DNA of 32,673 nt from an uncultured Muribaculaceae bacterium. GTDB lineage: Bacteria > Bacillota_I > Bacilli_A > RF39 > UBA660. How positions within the stretch are numbered: the first letter of the stretch is position 1; every line of letters starts with the position of its first letter. The notes beneath the pieces were generated by a model. That model worked only from the letters and a program-made list of their open reading frames with translations. It was not told the DNA's origin and ran no database searches. Positions 4,166 to 31,906 of the stretch are shown here, piece after piece. The DNA lies in NCBI GenBank assembly GCA_964423215.1, contig CAYRDW010000002.1, positions 1-32,673 on the forward strand. Direction: 5' to 3'. The translations under genes were made by a program, and so were the position numbers.

Positions 4166-5041
4166 TTGTATAGTGAAGAACAGGCTTTAAGAAAAGTTAT
4201 AAATCGTAGAAAAAAACATATCGTTATTTTAATTATGATTGTTTGTGTATTATTAATTATGGTACTAGGTGTATCTTTATATTTTTATATGGCAAATTTG
4301 CCATTAATAAATATTCCTATGGTAAGTCTTTCAACTGAAGACTGGACTAGGGAGAATATAGTACTATATGTTGATAGTGATCAGAATAAAATTAAAACTT
4401 ATTCTTTTGATGGAGGAAAAACTTGGCAAACTAATCGTTCAATAACAGTAACTGAAAACGGTGAATATACGATTCAAGTAATGGATATTAATGATAAACT
4501 TAGTAAGAGTACTTTTGTTTCGATTACTAATATTGATAGAGAACCGCCAGTATTAGTTTTTGAAAATTCTACTACGGTACAAATGGGATCTAATTTCTCA
4601 GTTCGTAATGGAGTACAAGCTACTGATAAAGAATCAGGTATTAGTAATAATTATACAGTTGTACCTGATAACATTGATATGAGTGTTGAAGGAGAGTATA
4701 ATTTAACTTATTCAGTTTTTGATAAAGCTGGTAACTTTGTTGAAAAAACGCGTACTATTATCGTTAAAGATATTAAGGGAAGAACTTATTATCGATCACG
4801 AAAGGTAACGACAAGTAATTATAAGTGTGAGCCATATTTATGTAATTGTGTAACTTCTAGTGCGATAGTAGAAGTAGGTAGTTGTCCGACTGGTTATACA
4901 CTTAATGATGAAAAACAATGTTGCCAAACATGTTATAAAACATGTCAGAGTAAAACTTATAGTGATTGGAGCGATTGGCAACAGAAAAAGATAGTAGCCA
5001 ATGCTAATACTGAAGTAGAAACAATTATAGTTGAGGATTAG
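4166..5041 (+). CDS. Signal-anchored surface protein: two Ig-like/DUF5011-like domains plus a Cys-rich C-terminal module (paralogue 1)
   Basis: TTG start with RBS TGGAG; the N-terminus MYSEEQ parallels MYTEED of the downstream paralogue. One TM helix. The motif SLSTEDWT..NIVL.V....YSFDGGKTW and the DUF5011-like segment VEGEYNLTYSVFDKAGNFVEKTRTIIVKD are present. There are 8 Cys in the last 73 aa. Confidence 0.75.
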   Translation: MYSEEQALRKVINRRKKHIVILIMIVCVLLIMVLGVSLYFYMANLPLINIPMVSLSTEDWTRENIVLYVDSDQNKIKTYSFDGGKTWQTNRSITVTENGEYTIQVMDINDKLSKSTFVSITNIDREPPVLVFENSTTVQMGSNFSVRNGVQATDKESGISNNYTVVPDNIDMSVEGEYNLTYSVFDKAGNFVEKTRTIIVKDIKGRTYYRSRKVTTSNYKCEPYLCNCVTSSAIVEVGSCPTGYTLNDEKQCCQTCYKTCQSKTYSDWSDWQQKKIVANANTEVETIIVED

Positions 5042-5051
5042 GGGGAATAGT

Positions 5052-6041
5052 ATGTATACAGAAGAAGATCAGTATGATGTTAAGTTTGATTCTCCTAAAC
5101 AGAAACAGGAGGATAAAAAACTAATTACGATGTTATTGATTGTTTTTGGTTTAATATTTATAGTAATTATTACGATTATTGTTTGTATTAATGTGTTTAG
5201 TAATAAAGTCTTTTTACCAGTAGTTTCTTTATCAACAAGTAATTGGACTAATAGTAATGTAGTTTTAACTGTTGATACTAATAATGATAAAAATATTAAT
5301 TTTTCATTTGATGGTGGTAAAACTTGGACTGATCAAAATAGTTTTACAGTAGAAGAAAATATGGATGTAGTTGTAATGGTTAAAAATAAAAAAGGAAAGA
5401 CAAGTAAAAAGGCGACAATTACAATTCAAAATATTGATAAAGAAGGACCAATTGTTAATTTTGTTGATCCACTATACATTCAAAGAGGTGAAGATTTTCA
5501 AAGTGATTTGAATAGTATAATGATCGATAGTGGTTCGGGAGTTAAGGATTATACAGTTGAACCACCAACTATTGATACTTCAGTTGATGGTGAATACCAA
5601 ATTGTATATAAAGTAAATGATCTAGTAGGGAATATAACAGAAAAAAATAGAACGGTTAGAGTAGGCGACTGGACAGGATTAACTTATTATTATCGTTCAC
5701 GTACGGTTGAATTAGAAAATTATCAGTGTGAACCATATGAATGTAGCTGTGTAAAATGTGATACTACTACGGCTGAAGCAGTAATTAGTTGTCCGACTGG
5801 CTATGAATTATCTGGTAATAAGTGTTTATTTGGTGATGATATTGCAGCGGTTCTTGTTTCATGTCCGAGTGGATATACTTTGTATTCTGGTACAACCTGT
5901 AAGGCAATTAAAAATACAGGACAGTGCTGTAAAACATGTTATAGAACTTGTCAAAGGGAGAAACATGGTGAATGGAATGACTGGACTACAACGGAATTAA
6001 AACCAGGTTCTAAGATACAAGTTGAATCTAAAGTAGAATAA
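5052..6041 (+). CDS. Signal-anchored surface protein, paralogue 2, with an expanded Cys-rich module
   Basis: ATG 5052 follows RBS AGGGGG; the track's TTG 5031 overlaps the upstream gene. Same architecture as 4166-5041 (SLSTSNWTNSNVVLTV...FSFDGGKTW; VDGEYQIVYKVNDLVGNITEKNRTVRV). There are 12 Cys in the tail, with a duplicated SCP[TS]GY unit. Confidence 0.75.
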   Translation: MYTEEDQYDVKFDSPKQKQEDKKLITMLLIVFGLIFIVIITIIVCINVFSNKVFLPVVSLSTSNWTNSNVVLTVDTNNDKNINFSFDGGKTWTDQNSFTVEENMDVVVMVKNKKGKTSKKATITIQNIDKEGPIVNFVDPLYIQRGEDFQSDLNSIMIDSGSGVKDYTVEPPTIDTSVDGEYQIVYKVNDLVGNITEKNRTVRVGDWTGLTYYYRSRTVELENYQCEPYECSCVKCDTTTAEAVISCPTGYELSGNKCLFGDDIAAVLVSCPSGYTLYSGTTCKAIKNTGQCCKTCYRTCQREKHGEWNDWTTTELKPGSKIQVESKVE

Positions 6042-17250: not shown

Positions 17251-18402
17251 ATGAAAAAGATATTATTGTTTCTTTGTATAGGATTATTATTTGTTCCTGG
17301 AATGGTTCGTGCAGAGGAAACACTAGCTACTGGTGCTAAGAGTGCTATTTTGGTAGAGGCCAATACAGGAACTGTTATTTTTGAAAAAAACATGAATGAA
17401 AGGGTAGCGGTTGCTTCTTTAACTAAGATGGTAGCTCAATTAATTATACTAGAAAATATAGAAAATGGAAGTCTAAAATGGGATGAACAGGTAAAAGCCA
17501 GTAGTAATGCCGCAGGTTATGGAGGAACTCAGATTTACTTACAACCGGGAGAATTGATGACAGTTAAGGATTTAATGAAAGGTGTAAGTATGGCTAGTGC
17601 TAATGATGCGACAGTTGCACTTGCGGAGAGAATTGCGGGAACTGAGGAAAATTTTGTTAAACTTATGATGGCTAAAGTCAAAGAATTAGGTTTAAAGGAT
17701 ACTAACTTTGTTAATCCAACAGGACTTGATGAAGATAATCATTATTCTACAGCTCATGACTTAAGTGTTATAGCTAGAGAATTAGTTAAACATGAACAGA
17801 TATTTGAATTTTCTTCTTTATATGAGGATTATTTAAGAGTTGATACTCCAAATAAGTTTTGGCTAGTTAATACTAATAAGCTAGTACGCTTCTATGAAGG
17901 CTCTGATGGCCTGAAAACAGGTTTTACAGATGCAGCTAAGTATTGCATGGCAGTAACTGCTAAACGTGATGGTATGAGGTTATTAGCAATAGTTTTAGGT
18001 GAAGATGTTAGTAAAGTTAGAAATGCTGAAACAACGGCTTTACTTGATTATGGATTTAATCTTTATAAAGTTAATGTTCTAAAACCAAAGGGAGCAGTTA
18101 TTGATAAAATAAAAGTAAGTAAAGGTAATGTCGGAGAAGTAGAAATAATTACGGCTGATGAAATAAGCGTTCTTAGTAAAAAGACGGATACTGATAAAAA
18201 ATATACAGAAAAAATAAAACTAGATGAAATTAAACTTCCTATTAAAAAGAATGCAGTAGTTGGTAAATTAACTGTTAGTGATGGTGCTAATGTAGTTGGT
18301 GAATATGATTTAATAGTTAATAATGATGTGAAAAAGAAAAATATAATTAATTTATATTTTGATAATCTTAAAGATATGATTATAGGACGTATTGACTTTT
18401 AA
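17251..18402 (+). CDS. dacF: Serine-type D-Ala-D-Ala carboxypeptidase (PBP5/DacF-like, peptidase S11)
   Basis: Signal peptide, SLTKM (SxxK), SANDA (SxN), KTGFT (KTG) and a PBP5 C-terminal domain. Its position upstream of the spoIIA locus mirrors B. subtilis dacF. The symbol rests on synteny only. Confidence 0.85.
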   Translation: MKKILLFLCIGLLFVPGMVRAEETLATGAKSAILVEANTGTVIFEKNMNERVAVASLTKMVAQLIILENIENGSLKWDEQVKASSNAAGYGGTQIYLQPGELMTVKDLMKGVSMASANDATVALAERIAGTEENFVKLMMAKVKELGLKDTNFVNPTGLDEDNHYSTAHDLSVIARELVKHEQIFEFSSLYEDYLRVDTPNKFWLVNTNKLVRFYEGSDGLKTGFTDAAKYCMAVTAKRDGMRLLAIVLGEDVSKVRNAETTALLDYGFNLYKVNVLKPKGAVIDKIKVSKGNVGEVEIITADEISVLSKKTDTDKKYTEKIKLDEIKLPIKKNAVVGKLTVSDGANVVGEYDLIVNNDVKKKNIINLYFDNLKDMIIGRIDF

Positions 18403-18611: not shown

Positions 18612-19049
18612 ATGGAGGTTGTTTTTAGAAAAGCACAAAGGGAAGACGTAAAGGGAATTATTGAATTATGTAATAATTGTTTTGATGAATCTACAAGTGT
18701 TAAATACGCTTTAGAAGTATTTGATAAAACAGCTAATGATCCTAATCAAATTTATCTAGTTGGTTTGGATAAAGACGAAATCATTGCTCATATGAAGATT
18801 ACTATAATTCAAACAATGTATAAACCAATGGCTACTTATGCAATACTTAATCACGTTTGTGTTAAACTAGAATATCGTAGACATAATATAGCTACTAAAA
18901 TGTTAGACGAGGGGACTATTATTTGTTCGGATATGGGATGTAATAAAATAGAATTATGGTCTAATAATTCAAGACAACCTGCTCATGCATGTTATAAGAA
19001 CTATGGTTTTGTAGTTAACGATGCTGGGTTCTTTTCAAAAGATATTTAA
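18612..19049 (+). CDS. GNAT-family N-acetyltransferase
   Basis: 145 aa. Acetyl-CoA-binding-like segment HVCVKLEYRRHNIATKML and C-terminal YKNYGF. Confidence 0.8.
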   Translation: MEVVFRKAQREDVKGIIELCNNCFDESTSVKYALEVFDKTANDPNQIYLVGLDKDEIIAHMKITIIQTMYKPMATYAILNHVCVKLEYRRHNIATKMLDEGTIICSDMGCNKIELWSNNSRQPAHACYKNYGFVVNDAGFFSKDI

Positions 19050-19064
19050 GGAAGGGGTATAGTT

Positions 19065-20246
19065 ATGAAGATTGAAAAGGTATCAGTTGGTGGTTGGTTT
19101 CAAAGAACTACTTTACATCTAAGTGAAATATATGATTTTTTAAGGGAAGGCGTTTCTAGATTAGATTTGGATAATAAAAAACTATTCAAATATCATAAAA
19201 AATTAGAACTTAAAGATGTTACTTATGAAATTGATGGTTTAGAATATTTAAATGTTACGACAAATGAAGATGTTTATATAAAAATTTTTGAAGATGGTTT
19301 AATTGTATTAAGTTATCATAACAGTGATGAAAATACGCTATTTGATGATATAGATCATATAGCTAAATATTATGAAGATAAGCTATCTCCAGCATTAAGT
19401 TATTTATTTAGCTTAGGGGCACCAGTTCCTAAAGAATTAGCGAATATTCAAACTGTTTATCCATACTTTATTGTTTTAGATAATGAAGCTAAAGATAAGA
19501 TCCATGAGTTATTAGCTAGAATAGAAAAAGAAAAGTACTTTGAATTTAATAATAATAGTTATGATGTTTTAAGAGGAGATAAATATTATTTTATTAATAA
19601 TAAGAATCAAACTCCACATGAAGTAGATAGATATATTGAAGAACAGATTTTTATTCGTGAATTTAAAGGACAATTACATAGATATTTGAATCTTCATCGT
19701 ATTATTTGGGAAAAGATAGATGCAGTTAAGGAAAATGTAAAAGTTAAAGGTAAAGATATTATTAATTTTACTTCTAAAATAGAGGGTTATGCTAAAACTG
19801 TTAACTTAATTGATGCTAGAATATTTCAAATGTCATCGTATTTAAAAACAAGAGAAAAAATAGCTAAGGCAGATGAGAAATTAAAGGAAGCTTTGGATTT
19901 AATTGGATATAGATATGAAAATTTATCTAATACGCTTTCTTATATACAACAGTTATGGAAGATGACTCAGAATTATGTTAAATCAGCACAAAACTTATTT
20001 AGTGGTCTACAAGCAGAAATTACTTCTAAATCAGTTAACAACTTAACGATTGTTACATCGATGGGAGTAGGTGCTTCACTAATTGGACTATTTACTGATT
20101 CTGCTCCGACGTTTACGGCTTTTGGAGTAACATATTTCTTTGCTTTAGCAGTAGTTGGTTATACTGTTAATAAACTAATGAAAATAATATCAGAGAATAG
20201 AAAATATCAAATATCTGATATTGAATATGATAAGAACATAAATTAA
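19065..20246 (+). CDS. Hypothetical protein: soluble N-terminal domain, coiled coil and a C-terminal two-helix membrane hairpin
   Basis: 393-aa ORF with RBS GGAAGGGG. Two predicted C-terminal TM helices (LTIVTSMGVGASLIGLF, FGVTYFFALAVVGYTV). Overall shape recalls DUF155/RMD1- or CorA-like proteins, but there is no GMN motif. Family not recognised with confidence. Confidence 0.65.
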   Translation: MKIEKVSVGGWFQRTTLHLSEIYDFLREGVSRLDLDNKKLFKYHKKLELKDVTYEIDGLEYLNVTTNEDVYIKIFEDGLIVLSYHNSDENTLFDDIDHIAKYYEDKLSPALSYLFSLGAPVPKELANIQTVYPYFIVLDNEAKDKIHELLARIEKEKYFEFNNNSYDVLRGDKYYFINNKNQTPHEVDRYIEEQIFIREFKGQLHRYLNLHRIIWEKIDAVKENVKVKGKDIINFTSKIEGYAKTVNLIDARIFQMSSYLKTREKIAKADEKLKEALDLIGYRYENLSNTLSYIQQLWKMTQNYVKSAQNLFSGLQAEITSKSVNNLTIVTSMGVGASLIGLFTDSAPTFTAFGVTYFFALAVVGYTVNKLMKIISENRKYQISDIEYDKNIN

Positions 20247-20260
20247 TAAATATTTATATT

Positions 20261-20288
20261 AAGAAAAGGATTTCCTTTTCTTTTTTTA
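20261..20288 (+). terminator. Rho-independent terminator
   Basis: 8-bp stem AGAAAAGG/CCTTTTCT, 4-nt loop, 7-T run. Confidence 0.65.
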
Positions 20289-20308
20289 TGGGAAGTTTTG
20301 ATATGTTT

Positions 20309-20315
20309 TGTCGAA
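20309..20315 (+). promoter_or_regulatory. Spo0A box (TGTCGAA) upstream of spoIIAA
   Basis: Exact match to the 0A-box consensus TGNCGAA, 60 nt upstream of the spoIIAA ATG. The B. subtilis spoIIA promoter is Spo0A-activated. Confidence 0.35.
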
Positions 20316-20374
20316 AGTGTATAAAGTATAAGAAAAATGGACTATATTTAATATACGAAAATAAGAGGTGAAAT

Positions 20375-20725
20375 ATGTTTCAAATTAATATGGAGTTTAT
20401 TAGAGGAATGTTGTTTGTTCGCTTAGAGGGAATTCTTAGTAAAAGAACTTCTAAAGAGCTTAATCTAGTATTAGATAAGATGATTCATGAACAAGGAGTA
20501 CGTTATTTTGTAATCAATTTAGAGAATTTGAAGTATATTGATGAGGTCGGAATACAAAGTATTATTAATCACTATTTTGATGTAGTGATGCATGAGGGTA
20601 AATTAGTGGTTTGTGGATATGATTCGCATATTAAAAAACAAGTTAAGAAAGATTTGGATATAGCTTTTCAGAATATTGAAAATAGTAGTAATGAATTAGG
20701 TGCTTTTAGGTTAATAAATATATAA
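20375..20725 (+). CDS. spoIIAA: Anti-sigma-F factor antagonist SpoIIAA (STAS domain) with Glu at the phospho-serine position
   Basis: 116 aa. Aligns without gaps to B. subtilis SpoIIAA through the core (VRLEGIL..., INLENLKYIDEVGIQSIINHY, GKLVVCG). Lies immediately upstream of sigF. Confidence 0.85.
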   Translation: MFQINMEFIRGMLFVRLEGILSKRTSKELNLVLDKMIHEQGVRYFVINLENLKYIDEVGIQSIINHYFDVVMHEGKLVVCGYDSHIKKQVKKDLDIAFQNIENSSNELGAFRLINI

Positions 20726-20736
20726 AGGGTGAAAAC

Positions 20737-21396
20737 ATGGCAGATGAAATCTTGAAGTATGAAAACTTGGTGTTATCTTATGCTAGTAAATTTCGTTATT
20801 ATTATGATATGGAAGATTTAAAACAAGTAGGAATGATAGGTTTAAAGAAAGCTTATGAAAAATATATTCCTAACAGTCAAACTACTTTTTCAACATATGC
20901 TTTTTTATGGATAAAGGGTGAGATACTTAAATATATTCAGGAAGATAAAACAATTAAAGTTAGTCGGGACTTAGTTAAACTTAGTCAATCGATAGAGGAA
21001 ATGCGTAATGTATTAAGACATAAGTTAATGAGGGAACCATCATTAGAAGAAATTGCTTTATTTTCGGAAATAGATATTTCTTTAATTGAAGAAGCAGAGT
21101 TATCTAAGGAATTTGTAAGAAGTTTAGATTATACTTTAAATGAAGATGATGAAGGTAAAGAACTTAATATGTATGATATGGTTTCTTACCAAGAAAAAGG
21201 ATACGATAGTGAAGTATTAGATTTAAGAGATGCTATTGAGAGATTAGATGAGAATGAACAGAAGATAGTTCAGTTTCGTTATTTTGATGATATGACTCAA
21301 AGTGAGACAGCTAGAAGACTAGGAGTTAATCAAGTTAAAATCTCTAGAGCGGAGCCCAAAATACTTCAAAAATTAAAAAAAGATTTAGTTGCTTAA
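20737..21396 (+). CDS. sigF: Sporulation sigma factor, SigF by synteny
   Basis: Sigma-70 regions 2 (DLKQVGMIGLKKAYEKY, FSTYAFLWIKGEI), 3 and 4 (QSETARRLGVNQVKISR). Sits between spoIIAA and spoVAC as in Bacilli and Clostridia. Confidence 0.85.
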   Translation: MADEILKYENLVLSYASKFRYYYDMEDLKQVGMIGLKKAYEKYIPNSQTTFSTYAFLWIKGEILKYIQEDKTIKVSRDLVKLSQSIEEMRNVLRHKLMREPSLEEIALFSEIDISLIEEAELSKEFVRSLDYTLNEDDEGKELNMYDMVSYQEKGYDSEVLDLRDAIERLDENEQKIVQFRYFDDMTQSETARRLGVNQVKISRAEPKILQKLKKDLVA

Positions 21397-21424
21397 AAAG
21401 ATATTATTGAAATATCTTTTTTTG
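21396..21424 (+). terminator. Rho-independent terminator after sigF
   Basis: Perfect 9-bp stem AAAGATATT/AATATCTTT, 5-nt loop, T-run. Confidence 0.7.
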
Positions 21425-21453: not shown

Positions 21454-21469
21454 GTAATGGGTGAAGAGG

Positions 21470-21910
21470 ATGGAAAAGAATAAATATAAAGAATTAGTAA
21501 ACAAACATAAGCCAGCTGAGACGAGAGCGCAGAATGCTTTTATAGCTTTTGTAACTGGTGGTTTAATAGGAGTAATTGGACAGCTGTTAACAGAGTTTTA
21601 TGCAAACTTTTTTGAGATTTCAAGTAAAGATGCATCTAGCTTTATGTTAGTAACACTTATTTTTTTAGCTAGTTTATTTACGGCTTTAGGCTTCTTTGAT
21701 AAGTGGGTTAACTTCTGTAAATGTGGTTTAATTATTCCTATTACAGGATTTGCTCATTCAATGACTAGTGCGGGAATTGAGTATCGAAGGGAAGGACCTA
21801 TCTTTGGTTTAGGAAGTAATATCTTTAAGTTAGCAGGATCAGTTATATTATATGGGATTGTATCAGCTTGGTTTTTTGGATTATTAAGACTGATAATTAT
21901 GGGAGGTTAA
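21470..21910 (+). CDS. spoVAC: Stage V sporulation protein AC
   Basis: The pattern ...NAFIAFVTGGLIGVIGQ... with four TM segments is typical of SpoVAC. ATG 21470 is preferred to GTG 21461. Confidence 0.9.
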   Translation: MEKNKYKELVNKHKPAETRAQNAFIAFVTGGLIGVIGQLLTEFYANFFEISSKDASSFMLVTLIFLASLFTALGFFDKWVNFCKCGLIIPITGFAHSMTSAGIEYRREGPIFGLGSNIFKLAGSVILYGIVSAWFFGLLRLIIMGG

Positions 21911-21913
21911 AAG

Positions 21914-22909
21914 ATGACATTTCGTTATAATAATGTGTTTGTAGAAGATGCATCTACGGTTGCGGGTCCATATGAAGCTAAAGGGCCTTTGAAAAAATAC
22001 TTTGATAAAACATTTGAAAATTTATATAATGGTGAGAAAACTTGGGAGACAGCAGAAGCTAAAAGTTTAGAAGAAAGTATCAAGATATTACTAGATAAAA
22101 CTAAAAAGAAAAAAGAAGATATTGACGTTATTATTTCTGGTGATTTACTTAATCAAATTACTTCTTCGTGTTATTCATCAGAAAAGTTTGGTTTTCCTTT
22201 CTTAGGTATTTATAGTGCTTGTGCAACTAGTGCTGAAGGTATTATTTTAGGTAGTACATTGATCGATTCAGGTAAAATTGATAATGCAATAGCAGCTACA
22301 TCATCACATAATATGAGTAGTGAAAAACAATTTCGTAATCCAACTGAGTATGGAGCATCGAAACCTAAAACAGCTACCTTTACAGCTACCGGTGGAGCTA
22401 GTATTTTATTAAGTAATAGAAATACTGGTATTAAAGTGGAAAGTTCAACGATTGGGAAAATTCTTGATTATGAACAAAATGATCCTTATCATATGGGAGC
22501 AGCAATGGCTCCGGCGGCGGCGGATACTATTCATAAACATCTAACGGATATGAATCGTAAACCTGATTATTATGATTTAATACTAACTGGTGATTTAGGT
22601 CTTTATGGAAAAGAAATCTTAATTGATTTTATGAAAACTGAATATGGAATAGATATAAGTAAGAATTATAATGACTGTGGTGTTATGTTATATGATTTAG
22701 AAAAACAAAAAGATGTTAATGCTGGTGGAAGTGGAACAGTATGTAGTGCTTTAGTTAGTTATAGTGTAATTTTAGATTTATTAAAAAAGAAGAAATTAAA
22801 AAAAGTATTATTAGTTGCGACAGGTGCTTTATTTTCTCCAACAATGGTATATCAACATGAAAATATTTTAAGTATCGCTCATGCTGTTAGTTTGGAGGTA
22901 ATAAAATGA
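21914..22909 (+). CDS. spoVAD: Stage V sporulation protein AD (thiolase-like fold)
   Basis: 331 aa; VAGPYEAKGPL and GIYSACATS are SpoVAD hallmarks. RBS GGGAGG. Confidence 0.92.
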   Translation: MTFRYNNVFVEDASTVAGPYEAKGPLKKYFDKTFENLYNGEKTWETAEAKSLEESIKILLDKTKKKKEDIDVIISGDLLNQITSSCYSSEKFGFPFLGIYSACATSAEGIILGSTLIDSGKIDNAIAATSSHNMSSEKQFRNPTEYGASKPKTATFTATGGASILLSNRNTGIKVESSTIGKILDYEQNDPYHMGAAMAPAAADTIHKHLTDMNRKPDYYDLILTGDLGLYGKEILIDFMKTEYGIDISKNYNDCGVMLYDLEKQKDVNAGGSGTVCSALVSYSVILDLLKKKKLKKVLLVATGALFSPTMVYQHENILSIAHAVSLEVIK

Positions 22910-23256
22910 TATATGTTAGTTCATTTCTATTTTGTGGATTTATTTGTTTATTAGGACAACTTATTTTAGATAATACAAAATTAACGCCAGGGCATGTAAC
23001 TAGTATTTTTGTAGTAGTTGGTGCTTTTCTAGATACATTTAGTATTTATGATCAGATTATCAACTATGTAGGAGCCGGTGCTTTAGTACCAATTACTAGT
23101 TTCGGACATTCACTTATTCATGGAGCTTTAACAAAGGCGGCTGATATGGGAATCATGGGTTTACTAATGGGAATGTTTGATTTGACAGCTTCTGGTATTA
23201 CAGCGGCTATAGTATTCACATTTATATTTTCTTTATTTTTTAAAGCAAAAGACTAG
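22906..23256 (+). CDS. spoVAE: Stage V sporulation protein AE (SpoVAEB-type)
   Basis: 116-aa membrane protein with ATGA overlap to spoVAD. Motif GAGALVPITSFGHSL is paralogous to the SpoVAC ITGFAHSM segment. Confidence 0.9.
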   Translation: MIYVSSFLFCGFICLLGQLILDNTKLTPGHVTSIFVVVGAFLDTFSIYDQIINYVGAGALVPITSFGHSLIHGALTKAADMGIMGLLMGMFDLTASGITAAIVFTFIFSLFFKAKD

Positions 23257-23292: not shown

Positions 23293-23316
23293 TTTAGTTT
23301 AGTTTAGTTTAGTTAG
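23293..23316. repeat. Pentanucleotide tandem repeat (TTTAG)x4 plus TTAG
   Basis: Read directly from the sequence. It overlaps the last codons and the stop of the minus-strand RNHCP gene (ELTKLN*). Confidence 0.85.
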
Positions 23317-23601
23317 TTCAATAATAAGATCCATATTATCGTCTCTAGCGATAATGTTTTTATGATTTTGGTGGCATTTTTCACAGCGATAGATAATTTT
23401 GAAAGAATCTTTGAATTTTTCAATACCTATTGGTTTTAGTAAACCATGACAGTTATTATCTCTATCTCCAGGAAAAATATCAACATGCTTAGAATATAAA
23501 CAATGGGGACAGTGATCACGAGCGGTGTAATTTAATTTAAAAACGCTTTCATTACAATTTTCACAGATAAAATTTTCATCTTTCATAGTAAACTTTTTCA
23601 T
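23299..23601 (-). CDS. RNHCP-domain zinc-ribbon protein
   Basis: CENC...RDHCPHCLYSKHVD...CHGLL...CEKC matches the RNHCP-domain pattern (RNHCPxCLxSxHVD). RBS AAGGAAG. Confidence 0.8.
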   Translation of the reverse strand: MKKFTMKDENFICENCNESVFKLNYTARDHCPHCLYSKHVDIFPGDRDNNCHGLLKPIGIEKFKDSFKIIYRCEKCHQNHKNIIARDDNMDLIIELTKLN

Positions 23602-25832: not shown

Positions 25833-25849
25833 TGATATAGGTGATGAAA

Positions 25850-26083
25850 ATGAAAAATGAACAAAGACAATTTGAACTTGAATATAATCTTATATGTGAT
25901 TTTATAAAACTTAGAAATGAACTAGGATTATCACAAAGAAAAATGGCAGATGAATCAGGCGTAATCAGAGAAATGATTGCTGTAATTGAAAATCAAAAGA
26001 AACATCCACAGATAAATACATTGATAAAAATATTAGAGCCATTAGGATATACATTATCAATAACTAAAATAAAGGAGGATTAG
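25850..26083 (+). CDS. Small XRE-family HTH protein
   Basis: LRNELGLSQRKMADESGVIREMIAVIENQKKHPQINTLIKILEPLG is an HTH_XRE fold. ATG 25850 follows RBS AGGTGA; 25844 is also possible. Confidence 0.8.
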   Translation: MKNEQRQFELEYNLICDFIKLRNELGLSQRKMADESGVIREMIAVIENQKKHPQINTLIKILEPLGYTLSITKIKED

Positions 26084-26085
26084 AT

Positions 26086-26922
26086 ATGGATAATAAATTA
26101 GCACTTTTTGAAGAAAAAGAAATAAGAAAGATTTGGAAAGAAAACAATTGGTATTTTAGTGTAGTTGATGTAATATTTGCATTAACTGATAGCAAAAATG
26201 CAAGAAGATACTGGAGTGATTTGAAAACTAAGTTAAAAAATGAAGGATATGATATTGAGCTGTACGAAATAATCGTACAACTGAAATTAGAATCATCTGA
26301 TGGTAAAAAATATAATACCGATTGTGCCGATACAGAAGGTATTTTAAGAATAATTCAATCTATTCCATCTCCTAAAGCAGAACCATTTAAAAGATGGCTT
26401 GCTAAAGTTGGAAGTGAAAGAATTGAGGAAATAAATAATCCAGAGCTTGCGATGGATAGAATGAAGCAGATTTATGAAAGAAAAGGTTATTCTAAATCTT
26501 GGATCGAGCAAAGGGAAAGAGGAATAACTGCAAGACATAATTTGACTGATGAGTGGAAAGAACGAGGAGCAAAAGTTGGAGTTGATTATGCAATCCTTAC
26601 AAATGAAATATATAAATCTGGTTTTGGATTTAGCGCAAAAGAATATAAAGATATTAAGGGGTTACACGATAGCCAAAATTTAAGGGATTCGATGAGCAAT
26701 ATAGAACTTGCACTTACAAATCTTGGAGAAGCAACAGCTGTAGAGCTTCATCAAAAAAATGATAGTCGTGGTATGAAACAGTTAAAAGACGATATGAAAG
26801 ATGCTGGACAAGTAATTAATACTGCAAAAAAAGAAATAGAGAATAAACTTGAAAGACCAATAGTTACTACAAATAATTATATTGAATTAACTAAAGATAA
26901 TGATTTAACTGAAATAAAATAA
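26086..26922 (+). CDS. BRO-N domain protein with a DinD-like C-terminal region (phage/mobile-element-associated family)
   Basis: The N-terminal FEEKEIRKIW.ENNWYFSVVDVIFALTDSKNARRYW is a Bro-N pattern. The KAEPFKRWLAKVG...GYSKSWIEQR...LTNEI...KGL segment resembles DNA-damage-inducible protein D-type proteins. It starts 3 nt after the XRE stop, with RBS AAAGGAGG. Confidence 0.7.
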   Translation: MDNKLALFEEKEIRKIWKENNWYFSVVDVIFALTDSKNARRYWSDLKTKLKNEGYDIELYEIIVQLKLESSDGKKYNTDCADTEGILRIIQSIPSPKAEPFKRWLAKVGSERIEEINNPELAMDRMKQIYERKGYSKSWIEQRERGITARHNLTDEWKERGAKVGVDYAILTNEIYKSGFGFSAKEYKDIKGLHDSQNLRDSMSNIELALTNLGEATAVELHQKNDSRGMKQLKDDMKDAGQVINTAKKEIENKLERPIVTTNNYIELTKDNDLTEIK

Positions 26923-30480: not shown

Positions 30481-30609
30481 GATTAAAACTTTTTTAGGAC
30501 AGTGTAGTGATAATTATACTGCCCTTTTTATGTGGAATTAAGTTTGTTAAAAAAATTTGAAACTTTTTAGGATAAACTAAACGCTTTATTAGTGAAAGGC
30601 GGTGGGTTA

Positions 30610-31146
30610 ATGGTCGACCAAAATACCACTAATCTTTTCAATAACATATATGATTCAACCAATAAGAAGGTCCTTGCTTATATTACAGCTAAATGTGGTA
30701 ACACTTCTGATATCAGTGATATTTTTCAGGAAACTTACATGGAACTATATGCGGTCCTTGTTAAAAAGGGAACTAATTATGTGAAAAATAGCGAAGCTTT
30801 TGTAATTAAAATAGCTAAACAGAAGATATTTCGCTATTATTCACTTAGCCAGCGCTTAAAATCCATGGTGCCAATGATTAATATTAATGAAGAGGGAGAA
30901 GAATTTAATATTGCTGATTTAGAAATTGATTCATTTTCAGTAGATAAAATTGTTTCGGAGAAAATGTTAATTGCGCAGGTTAATCAATTTCTTTCTACAA
31001 AGCCGGTAGATATTAGAAAGATATTTTATCTTTTCTATTATATGAATATGCCTATTTCGGAAATAGCTTTATTACTTTCAATGAGCGAATCTAATGTTAA
31101 AAACAAATTGTATCGTACCATTAAGGAGTTACGAAAAATTTATTAA
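30610..31146 (+). CDS. ECF-like sigma-70 family factor (regions 2 and 4 only)
   Basis: Region 2 DISDIFQETYMELY and region 4 HTH MPISEIALLLSMSESNVKNKLYRTIKELR. ATG 30610 follows GGCGGTGGG. Confidence 0.8.
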   Translation: MVDQNTTNLFNNIYDSTNKKVLAYITAKCGNTSDISDIFQETYMELYAVLVKKGTNYVKNSEAFVIKIAKQKIFRYYSLSQRLKSMVPMININEEGEEFNIADLEIDSFSVDKIVSEKMLIAQVNQFLSTKPVDIRKIFYLFYYMNMPISEIALLLSMSESNVKNKLYRTIKELRKIY

Positions 31147-31162
31147 TAAAAGGAGGTTTATT

Positions 31163-31906
31163 ATGAAAGAGAAGAAAATAATTTCAAAAGCAATCGATGT
31201 CAATATGCCAAATATTGAAGAAGTACGTAAAAATTGTATAACTCAAAATATTCAACCAAAAAAAATAAAATTTATTTGGATTAAACGGTTGGTTCCTATT
31301 GCGGCTTGTATTATTCTGGTTTTAACAATTGGGATAAATTGGGGACCCAAAAATATTTTTTCAGCTAATAAAGTAGAGAGTGGAAGAGACATAATAAAAA
31401 CAGAAGTATTTATCAATGAACTTTCTACAGGACTATCAGAAGATAGAGCTATTTATAATTTATCGTGGGATGATTTTGTTTCGATGGAAAAAGAGGAACT
31501 TATCAAGTTTTATGGAGTAAATATTTTTCCTACAGTTATTCCTAATGATATCTTTGAAGTTCCTGAGGAAGTAAAACCTGGAGTTTTTAAAAGAGACAAA
31601 GGTAAAGGGGAAGTATATCATAGTCAAAATCTTGTAAATTATTATTCTAATGATTTTACAAGAAGTATCAATATTGAAGTAGCTAAGGGAGAGATACCAT
31701 TTACATGTGTTTCCTTTAATGTAGATAACAATGATGTAAAGGAATCAATTATTAATAATAATCCAGTAACTATTGGTCATTATATAGCTAACGCTGACAG
31801 TTATTATTATGCACTTTTTATTTATAAAGATGTTGGTTTTATAGTTAGTGCAACCAATTTAACCCAAACAGAATTCATTGATATGTTAAGTTCTATTTTA
31901 AAATAA
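31163..31906 (+). CDS. Putative cognate anti-sigma factor/membrane sensor (single TM, extracytoplasmic DUF4367-like domain)
   Basis: ATG 31163 follows RBS AAGGAGG. The track's upstream extension overlaps the sigma gene. Short cytoplasmic N-terminus, TM LVPIAACIILVLTIGI and a ~185-aa external domain. The anti-sigma role is inferred from position only. Confidence 0.55.
   Translation: MKEKKIISKAIDVNMPNIEEVRKNCITQNIQPKKIKFIWIKRLVPIAACIILVLTIGINWGPKNIFSANKVESGRDIIKTEVFINELSTGLSEDRAIYNLSWDDFVSMEKEELIKFYGVNIFPTVIPNDIFEVPEEVKPGVFKRDKGKGEVYHSQNLVNYYSNDFTRSINIEVAKGEIPFTCVSFNVDNNDVKESIINNNPVTIGHYIANADSYYYALFIYKDVGFIVSATNLTQTEFIDMLSSILK

Follow-up and report, generated by a model that had tools for sequence, protein, structure and literature searches.

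In one 32.7-kb contig from an uncultured gut bacterium (32,673 bases, here called the window, covering part of the genome), we found that the spoIIA locus encodes a STAS protein orthologous to SpoIIAA and, directly behind it, a SigF-type sporulation sigma factor, and that spoIIAB, which separates these genes in Bacillus subtilis, is missing. The gene is missing from the operon throughout the lineage, across about a hundred related species, and neither a local deletion nor a misassembly accounts for this. We consider it probable that the SpoIIAA-SpoIIAB-SpoIIE partner switch has been lost lineage-wide, that the STAS protein has been retained in a phosphorylation-independent role, and that the timing of sigma F is driven by Spo0A. 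The central features are as follows.

20375-20725, + strand: STAS gene (SpoIIAA orthologue, 116 amino acids; stop codon TAA at 20723-20725), assigned by Pfam, TIGR02886 and fold.
20540-20542, + strand: codon GAT of Asp56, read from the sequence.
20543-20545, + strand: codon GAG of Glu57, which aligns with Ser58 of B. subtilis SpoIIAA at the N-terminus of helix alpha-2 (alignment, profile and AlphaFold).
20726-20736, + strand: 11-nucleotide (nt) spacer between the STAS and sigma genes with the ribosome-binding site AGGGTGA, read from the sequence.
20737-21396, + strand: SigF-type sigma gene (219 amino acids) with a shortened N-terminus, assigned by Pfam, NCBIfam and alignment.

A first-pass annotation of this DNA had stated that the sigma gene starts 11 nt after the STAS stop codon with no spoIIAB between them. 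These coordinates reproduced exactly; no open reading frame (ORF) fits in the spacer between the two genes, which leaves no room for spoIIAB. Four scans of one-genome-per-species contigs, using the sigma factor, the STAS family and, twice, SpoVAD as queries, returned about 190 loci; the window contig itself comes from an NCBI assembly and lies outside the species-representative set that was scanned. Recurrence was counted over 98 distinct SigF-type sigma loci of the lineage that came from other assemblies and had enough upstream sequence. The STAS gene lay directly 5′ of the sigma gene in 87 of them, mostly with a gap of 8-14 nt, and in some loci the two genes overlapped by 1-38 nt. No SpoIIAB-like ORF was detected in the window or in the related loci by tblastn, blastp or an unfiltered hidden Markov model search, the last of which gave nothing below E = 0.7. 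SpoIIAB was recovered at E values of 1e-36 to 1e-80 in 8/8 Lachnospiraceae and Clostridium control loci carrying spoIIAA, which were taken from the same scan and show the canonical spoIIAA-spoIIAB-sigF order. With the controls detected and the related loci empty, the earlier proposal that spoIIAB is missing and that the canonical partner switch appears lost was borne out.

That proposal would have been undermined by an assembly deletion at the spoIIAA-sigF junction. The contig does come from a metagenome assembly, which is all that speaks for an assembly or binning artefact confined to it, but the identical junction occurs in 87 independent assemblies from varied studies and hosts. We regard the artefact as already refuted and its remaining probability as negligible.

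Judged by its sequence and modeled fold, the retained STAS protein is a real SpoIIAA orthologue. It scored 36.6 bits against Pfam STAS and 50.4 bits against TIGR02886 (spore_II_AA), the latter below the equivalog cut-off of 114.75. The alignment with B. subtilis SpoIIAA was gapless through the loop, with D56-E57-V58-G59 falling on D57-S58-S59-G60. When a profile of the STAS family was compared with PDB sequences, the SpoIIAA entries 1TH8, 1TID and 1AUZ were matched in the same register at E 1e-17 to 1e-19, and the families that followed SpoIIAA reached only E 1e-6. In the AlphaFold model (predicted local distance difference test, pLDDT, 85.4; predicted template modeling score, pTM, 0.79), helix alpha-2 begins at residue 57. 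The top five PDB matches of the model were Geobacillus SpoIIAA chains, with template modeling (TM) scores of 0.86-0.87, and the model also matched the UsfX-RsfB complex 8IH8 at a TM score of about 0.8. Alignment, profile register and helix start thus agree with the first-pass annotation in placing Glu57 at the Ser58 position. A structure-based alignment with a Ser or Thr at the phospho-site would have spoken against that placement; instead, Glu57 stands at the start of helix alpha-2, and no Ser or Thr occurs within four residues of position 57.

The sigma protein contains all three Pfam sigma-70 regions r2, r3 and r4 and scored best on the SigB/F/G and SigF models, reaching 153 bits on TIGR02885, below the equivalog cut-off of 321. 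The SigG models gave 95-106 bits, less than the SigF score. On these profile comparisons, it is a SigF-type sporulation sigma factor.

Residues of the STAS protein were counted, in B. subtilis numbering, across 65 distinct related STAS proteins and nine kinase-bearing controls. The positions that serve SpoIIAB docking (E21, D23, F55, M56, D57, S58, G60, G62 and G66) were invariant in 9/9 controls and degenerate in the 65 relatives. The acidic pair and the Phe among them are stated to mediate the binding of the anti-sigma factor in SpoIIAA and RsbV (PMC10120452). At position 21 the relatives have V16, I15, E15 and others; at position 23, N26, S13, D13, T12 and one other; and at position 55, I11, S10, K10, N8 and others. 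The window's protein carries Ile, Ser and Tyr at these three positions. Taken together, the substitutions argue that the SpoIIAB-docking interface of SpoIIAA is gone in the lineage.

The phospho-site itself is variable too. Position 58 reads E29, N8, K8, Q6, D4, T3, S2, Y2, C1, A1 and H1, so that Ser or Thr is present in 5/65 related proteins, and the window has Glu57. Fixation of Glu is confined to the window's clade, where 21 distinct sequences comprise 20 Glu and 1 Cys. The two species of loci L037 and L038 have Cys in place of Glu at the Ser58 position (STAS gene at 5001-5345; IDCEGI).

The first-pass annotation gave weight to Glu57 as a phosphomimic. Replacing Ser58 of B. subtilis SpoIIAA with an acidic residue mimics phosphorylation, and Glu57 might lock the protein in a "phosphorylated" conformation with a role of its own, like the STAS phospho-forms that bind a second partner. 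The near-fixation of Glu in the window's clade and the Glu or Asp found at the site in most database relatives fit this idea. However, Asn, Lys, Gln, Tyr, Cys, Ala, His, Thr and Ser also occur there across the lineage, and the neighboring S59, G60, G62 and G66 positions are unconstrained as well, which is the pattern of a freed site and not of a selected mimic. Because the site varies across the lineage and Glu is fixed only in the window's clade, an acidic residue at position 58 is not required. We consider a functional phosphomimic improbable; Glu57 looks like what one clade happens to carry at a site no longer constrained after kinase loss.

The STAS gene is under strong purifying selection and is not decaying. 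The ratio of nonsynonymous to synonymous substitution rates (dN/dS) was 0.00-0.07 for STAS in pairs with unsaturated synonymous sites, compared with 0.03-0.11 for the sigma factor and 0.01-0.04 for SpoVAD. Five positions, R17, G20, G76, C81 and E106, were near-invariant in the 65 related STAS proteins; G76 is conserved in the controls too, whereas R17, G20, C81 and E106 mostly are not. Cys at the C81 position was near-invariant in the lineage proteins (62/65), which is not the case in the kinase-bearing controls. A decaying sporulation pathway in a host-associated lineage, with the STAS-sigma pair a relic close to loss, would agree with the reduced genomes of the group, the many sporulation genes that are gone, and the species described below that lack STAS or carry a truncated copy. 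The low dN/dS values of all three genes, intact ORFs in 87 species, a conserved Spo0A-box promoter architecture and SpoVAD identities of 60-86% across the lineage are against it, and this explanation, already disfavored, seems to us very improbable.

The other partner of SpoIIAB has changed too. The first residue of the window's sigma factor, and of all 69 aligned relatives, corresponds to about residue 33-36 of B. subtilis SigF; related sigma factors are 203-231 amino acids long, and all are without the N-terminal ~30 residues. The lineage's start point is preceded by about 20 residues in Lachnospiraceae SigF and by about 35 in B. subtilis SigF. Glu stands at the E149 position of SigF in 8/8 control sigma factors and in B. 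subtilis SigF and SigG, compared with E32, S14, K8, D4 and others in the lineage and Ser in the window. The substitution E156K at the equivalent position of SigG makes SigG refractory to SpoIIAB (PMC3174212). By these residue comparisons, SpoIIAB-specific constraints are lost in both partners, SpoIIAA and sigma F; therefore, we argue, the anti-sigma factor would be truly gone and not merely moved.

Published gene-content data bear on the same question, provided that the lineage is placed. The relatives are metagenome-assembled genomes labeled as uncultured Bacilli, Tenericutes or Mycoplasma, and the named ones are Clostridium sp. CAG:710, Clostridium sp. CAG:417, Candidatus Faecimonas intestinavium and Mycoplasma sp. 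CAG:877, in the last of which (L135) the STAS and sigma genes are likewise adjacent, 10 nt apart. We take NCBI Mycoplasma sp. CAG:877 to be GTDB genus CAG-877, equating the two by their shared CAG number alone. Genus CAG-877 (Candidatus Faecimonas) belongs to order RF39, family CAG-611 (Gilroy et al. 2021). From these nearest named relatives, the lineage is most likely GTDB order RF39. The name "Candidatus Scybalousia" is ambiguous, being an NCBI Bacteroidales genus whose Bacilli namesake is now "Alloscybalousia", and was not used as an RF39 anchor. A KEGG-based survey of RF39 (Microb Genom 2024; PMC10868615) states that spoIIAB and spoIIE are reduced or absent in RF39 genomes, and it predicts the order to be spore-forming with "markedly different regulation". 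In the window, profile searches, which cover one contig of the genome, did not find SpoIIE.

The main rival to lineage-wide loss is an unrecognized anti-sigma factor encoded elsewhere, either a divergent, kinase-dead SpoIIAB-like protein or an unrelated one, which the STAS protein would antagonize on a cue that is not phosphorylation, in the manner of the mycobacterial RsfA-UsfX-SigF system. Purifying selection on STAS and its new near-invariant residues on the partner-binding face would suit such a partner, as would the structural match to the UsfX-RsfB complex. Additionally, our search covered a single contig of the genome, and the lineage's proteins have diverged enough to fall under curated cut-offs. 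Against these points stand the unconserved GHKL-docking residues of STAS, the unconserved Glu of sigma F that is important for SpoIIAB binding, the lack of any operon-linked candidate gene in about 100 loci, the complete loss of STAS in some species, and the reduction or absence of spoIIAB reported in the survey (PMC10868615). We consider a distant anti-sigma factor unlikely, if less so than the other rivals. The same docking residues, sigma F Glu and survey make the first-pass suggestion that the kinase itself lies at a distant locus unlikely.

The signals around the pair are as follows.

20261-20282, + strand: terminator-like hairpin ending the 393-amino-acid gene (1 site versus 0.1 expected in shuffles).
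20309-20315, + strand: Spo0A box TGTCGAA, 66 nt 5′ of the STAS start codon.
20319-20325, + strand: conserved GTATAAA, downstream of the Spo0A box.
20342-20348, + strand: conserved CTATATT, downstream of the Spo0A box.
21397-21423, + strand: A+T-rich hairpin AAAGATAT...ATATCTTT with a run of T residues behind it, 3′ of the sigma stop codon, read from the sequence.

The TGTCGAA 0A box named in the first-pass annotation is present and its position is kept: an exact box lies 51-69 nt 5′ of the STAS ATG in 60/65 related loci, against a background of 2.6% of 200-nt windows, and a second box is often found 26 nt farther upstream. The operon promoter would accordingly appear to be activated by Spo0A via conserved 0A boxes. 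Across the promoter region at 20283-20374 and 61 related loci, the conserved architecture comprises as many as three direct TGTCGAA boxes with spacings of 10 and 26 nt, a TTTGACA-like element immediately 5′ of the proximal box, and, 3′ of the boxes, GTATAAA and CTATATT about 16 nt apart. The latter two elements do not seem to fit the sigma-A or the sigma-H consensus. A sigma-70 promoter scan gave sites no more numerous than in shuffled sequence. Since the hairpin at 20261-20282 closes the 393-amino-acid gene, the STAS-sigma pair would have its own promoter. The hairpin at 21397-21423 misses the G+C criterion of the terminator scanner and is the probable terminator of a two-gene operon. With hairpins on either side and the 0A box, the STAS and sigma genes appear to make up an autonomous two-gene operon dependent on Spo0A.

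Overall, we propose the following putative mechanism. spoIIAB would have been deleted from the operon in the lineage, and spoIIE would also be absent according to the published gene-content data. A single ancestral deletion may have removed spoIIAB and the ~30 codons at the 5′ end of sigF, and this would account for the absent gene as well as for the uniformly short sigma F. The SpoIIAA-SpoIIAB-SpoIIE phosphorylation switch would then no longer hold and release sigma F; with the kinase absent and SpoIIAA non-phosphorylatable, sigma F must presumably be controlled in some other way. Spo0A, acting via the conserved 0A boxes, would still turn the operon on, and STAS and sigma F would be made from one tightly coupled two-gene transcript. 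The STAS protein, kept by purifying selection in ~90% of species with R17, G20, C81 and E106 as new near-invariant residues, would most likely serve as a phosphorylation-independent accessory modulator acting directly on sigma F, whose timing would be set mainly by Spo0A-dependent transcription.

Several observations weigh against this proposal. About eight species keep sigF-spoVA without STAS (L069, L071, L138, L147, L148, L157, L177 and L190), and one or two more carry a 67-amino-acid STAS remnant (L106:2642-2845 and L179:3142-3345). STAS therefore disappeared on more than one occasion once spoIIAB was gone, its function is dispensable in places, and its role would not be strictly essential, because these species dropped STAS and kept sigF-spoVA. 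A contact between STAS and sigma F is hypothetical, and the co-evolution signal of the two was no stronger than the control: in a distance-matrix analysis with SpoVA controlled, the STAS-sigma partial correlation was 0.35, compared with 0.34 for the STAS-SpoVAC control. Membership in RF39 is deduced from the nearest named relatives and not from marker genes. That spoIIAB and spoIIE are absent genome-wide is taken from the KEGG survey, our own analysis covering one contig, and the survey's wording, "reduced presence or complete absence", means that some RF39 genomes may carry a match (PMC10868615). A survey by KEGG orthology could also miss very divergent homologues, and the lineage's SpoIIAA and SigF score far below NCBIfam cut-offs. 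Finally, all organisms of the lineage are uncultured, and their sporulation is predicted.

A bolder version of the STAS protein's part in this mechanism, to which we give a low probability, is that the SpoIIAA orthologue has changed roles and itself binds sigma F or RNA polymerase, as a kinase-free holder or releaser of sigma F. If so, the pair would be a two-protein minimal cell-fate switch, with forespore-specific activation achieved without phosphorylation, for example via STAS turnover.

The neighborhood of the pair, listed below, supports its assignment.

17251-18402, + strand: dacF-like D-Ala-D-Ala carboxypeptidase gene (Peptidase_S11 and PBP5_C; Pfam 248 bits).
21461-21910, + strand: spoVAC (Pfam and NCBIfam profile matches).
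21914-22909, + strand: spoVAD (434 bits on NF006160 and 419 bits on TIGR02845, both exceeding the cut-offs).
22906-23256, + strand: spoVAE (Pfam and NCBIfam profile matches).

The genes spoVAC, spoVAD and spoVAE follow directly 3′ of the sigma gene at 21461-23256 on the + strand, as the first-pass annotation had them, with the same adjacency to spoIIA as in B. subtilis. The dacF-like gene that it cited as context is also present. However, this gene is not adjacent to the STAS gene in the window, where a GNAT gene and the 393-amino-acid gene (18612-20246) part the two; at least 25 related loci have carboxypeptidase homologues 5′ of STAS, and in relatives they are its direct neighbor. Neither intervening gene has a homologue in any related locus, and because of this we judge both to be a recent insertion into a conserved dacF-spoIIA neighborhood. 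The 393-amino-acid protein has a hydrophobic C-terminus and no family match. We considered it as a replacement regulator and rejected it, because the related loci have neither it nor the GNAT gene. The STAS gene is thus the first gene of the sigma F operon in a dacF/spoVA neighborhood, and SpoIIAA orthology, the SigF-type sigma factor, the spoVA neighbors and the 0A box agree with the annotation's view of a genuine spoIIA locus.

Some further genes of the window and the related loci deserve a brief description. Just past spoVAE, at 23299-23601 on the - strand, lies a gene for a 100-amino-acid RNHCP-domain zinc-ribbon protein (PF12647, 94 bits), which is found at the same place, 69-83% identical, in 64 related loci. 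Apart from conserved synteny, nothing favors this ORF as an anti-sigma factor of the Gin or Fin type. In one sub-clade, an ORF inserted between sigF and spoVAC encodes a protein of 246-250 amino acids that has a membrane anchor at its N-terminus and matches no Pfam family (L034:6064-6804); the insertion is also found in L032, L033, L035-L038, L042, L046-L048 and L054. Elsewhere in the window, an extracytoplasmic function (ECF)-type sigma gene at 30592-31146 is overlapped by a 270-amino-acid ORF at 31094-31906 without a family match, possibly its anti-sigma factor. A peptidase C1-like ORF at 27345-28076 matches positions 195-433 of a 438-position Pfam profile; its N-terminal half is missing, and it is either a truncated gene or a frameshift. 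At 25841-26922, a small XRE-type helix-turn-helix gene precedes a gene for a 278-amino-acid protein weakly similar to DNA-damage-inducible protein D, and the pair may be part of a mobile or defense element.

The SpoIIAA-SpoIIAB-SpoIIE switch is the textbook means of activating the first compartment-specific sigma factor in endospore formation. A large gut lineage of Bacilli that keeps sigF, spoVA and a Spo0A promoter under selection, yet has apparently discarded the kinase and the kinase-binding face of SpoIIAA, offers a natural experiment on the minimum needed for sigma F activation and on other roles of SpoIIAA-type STAS proteins. It also calls for caution, as the regulatory model behind marker-based predictions of sporulation for uncultured gut bacteria would be invalid for this lineage.

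The closest known system is the B. subtilis spoIIA operon (spoIIAA-spoIIAB-sigF) with SpoIIE. Both have a dacF-like gene upstream, spoVA downstream, a Spo0A-box promoter, a SigF-type sigma factor and a STAS protein that is orthologous to SpoIIAA in sequence and fold. In contrast to B. subtilis, the lineage has no SpoIIAB, no phospho-Ser and, according to the literature, no SpoIIE. Its SpoIIAA does not conserve E21, D23, F55 and the glycine face of helix alpha-2, and its sigma F lacks the ~30 N-terminal residues and the conserved E149 of B. subtilis SigF.

For SigF of Mycobacterium tuberculosis, the STAS antagonist RsfA is not known to be regulated by phosphorylation. The RsfA/RsfB-UsfX-SigF system shares with the lineage a SigF-type sigma factor with a STAS antagonist, and the structural match to 8IH8 falls within it; the mycobacterial system has the anti-sigma factor UsfX, whereas none was found at the lineage loci.

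The loss at the gene level is already on record, in one sentence and at the level of the order, as gene counts (PMC10868615). Neither "spoIIAA" nor "sigF" is mentioned in the main text of that survey, and the retained SpoIIAA, the lost phospho-site and docking residues, the short sigma F and the 0A promoter are not described in it. What appears to be new here is a non-phosphorylatable, remodeled SpoIIAA that, next to a shortened sigma F, is encoded behind a conserved Spo0A promoter. Vibrio fischeri SypA is a single-domain STAS protein thought to act as a downstream effector via a partner other than its kinase (PMC10120452). Unlike the STAS protein described here, SypA keeps its phospho-Ser and the kinase/phosphatase SypE and is unlinked to a sigma gene; the two have in common a single STAS domain that possibly acts through a non-kinase partner.

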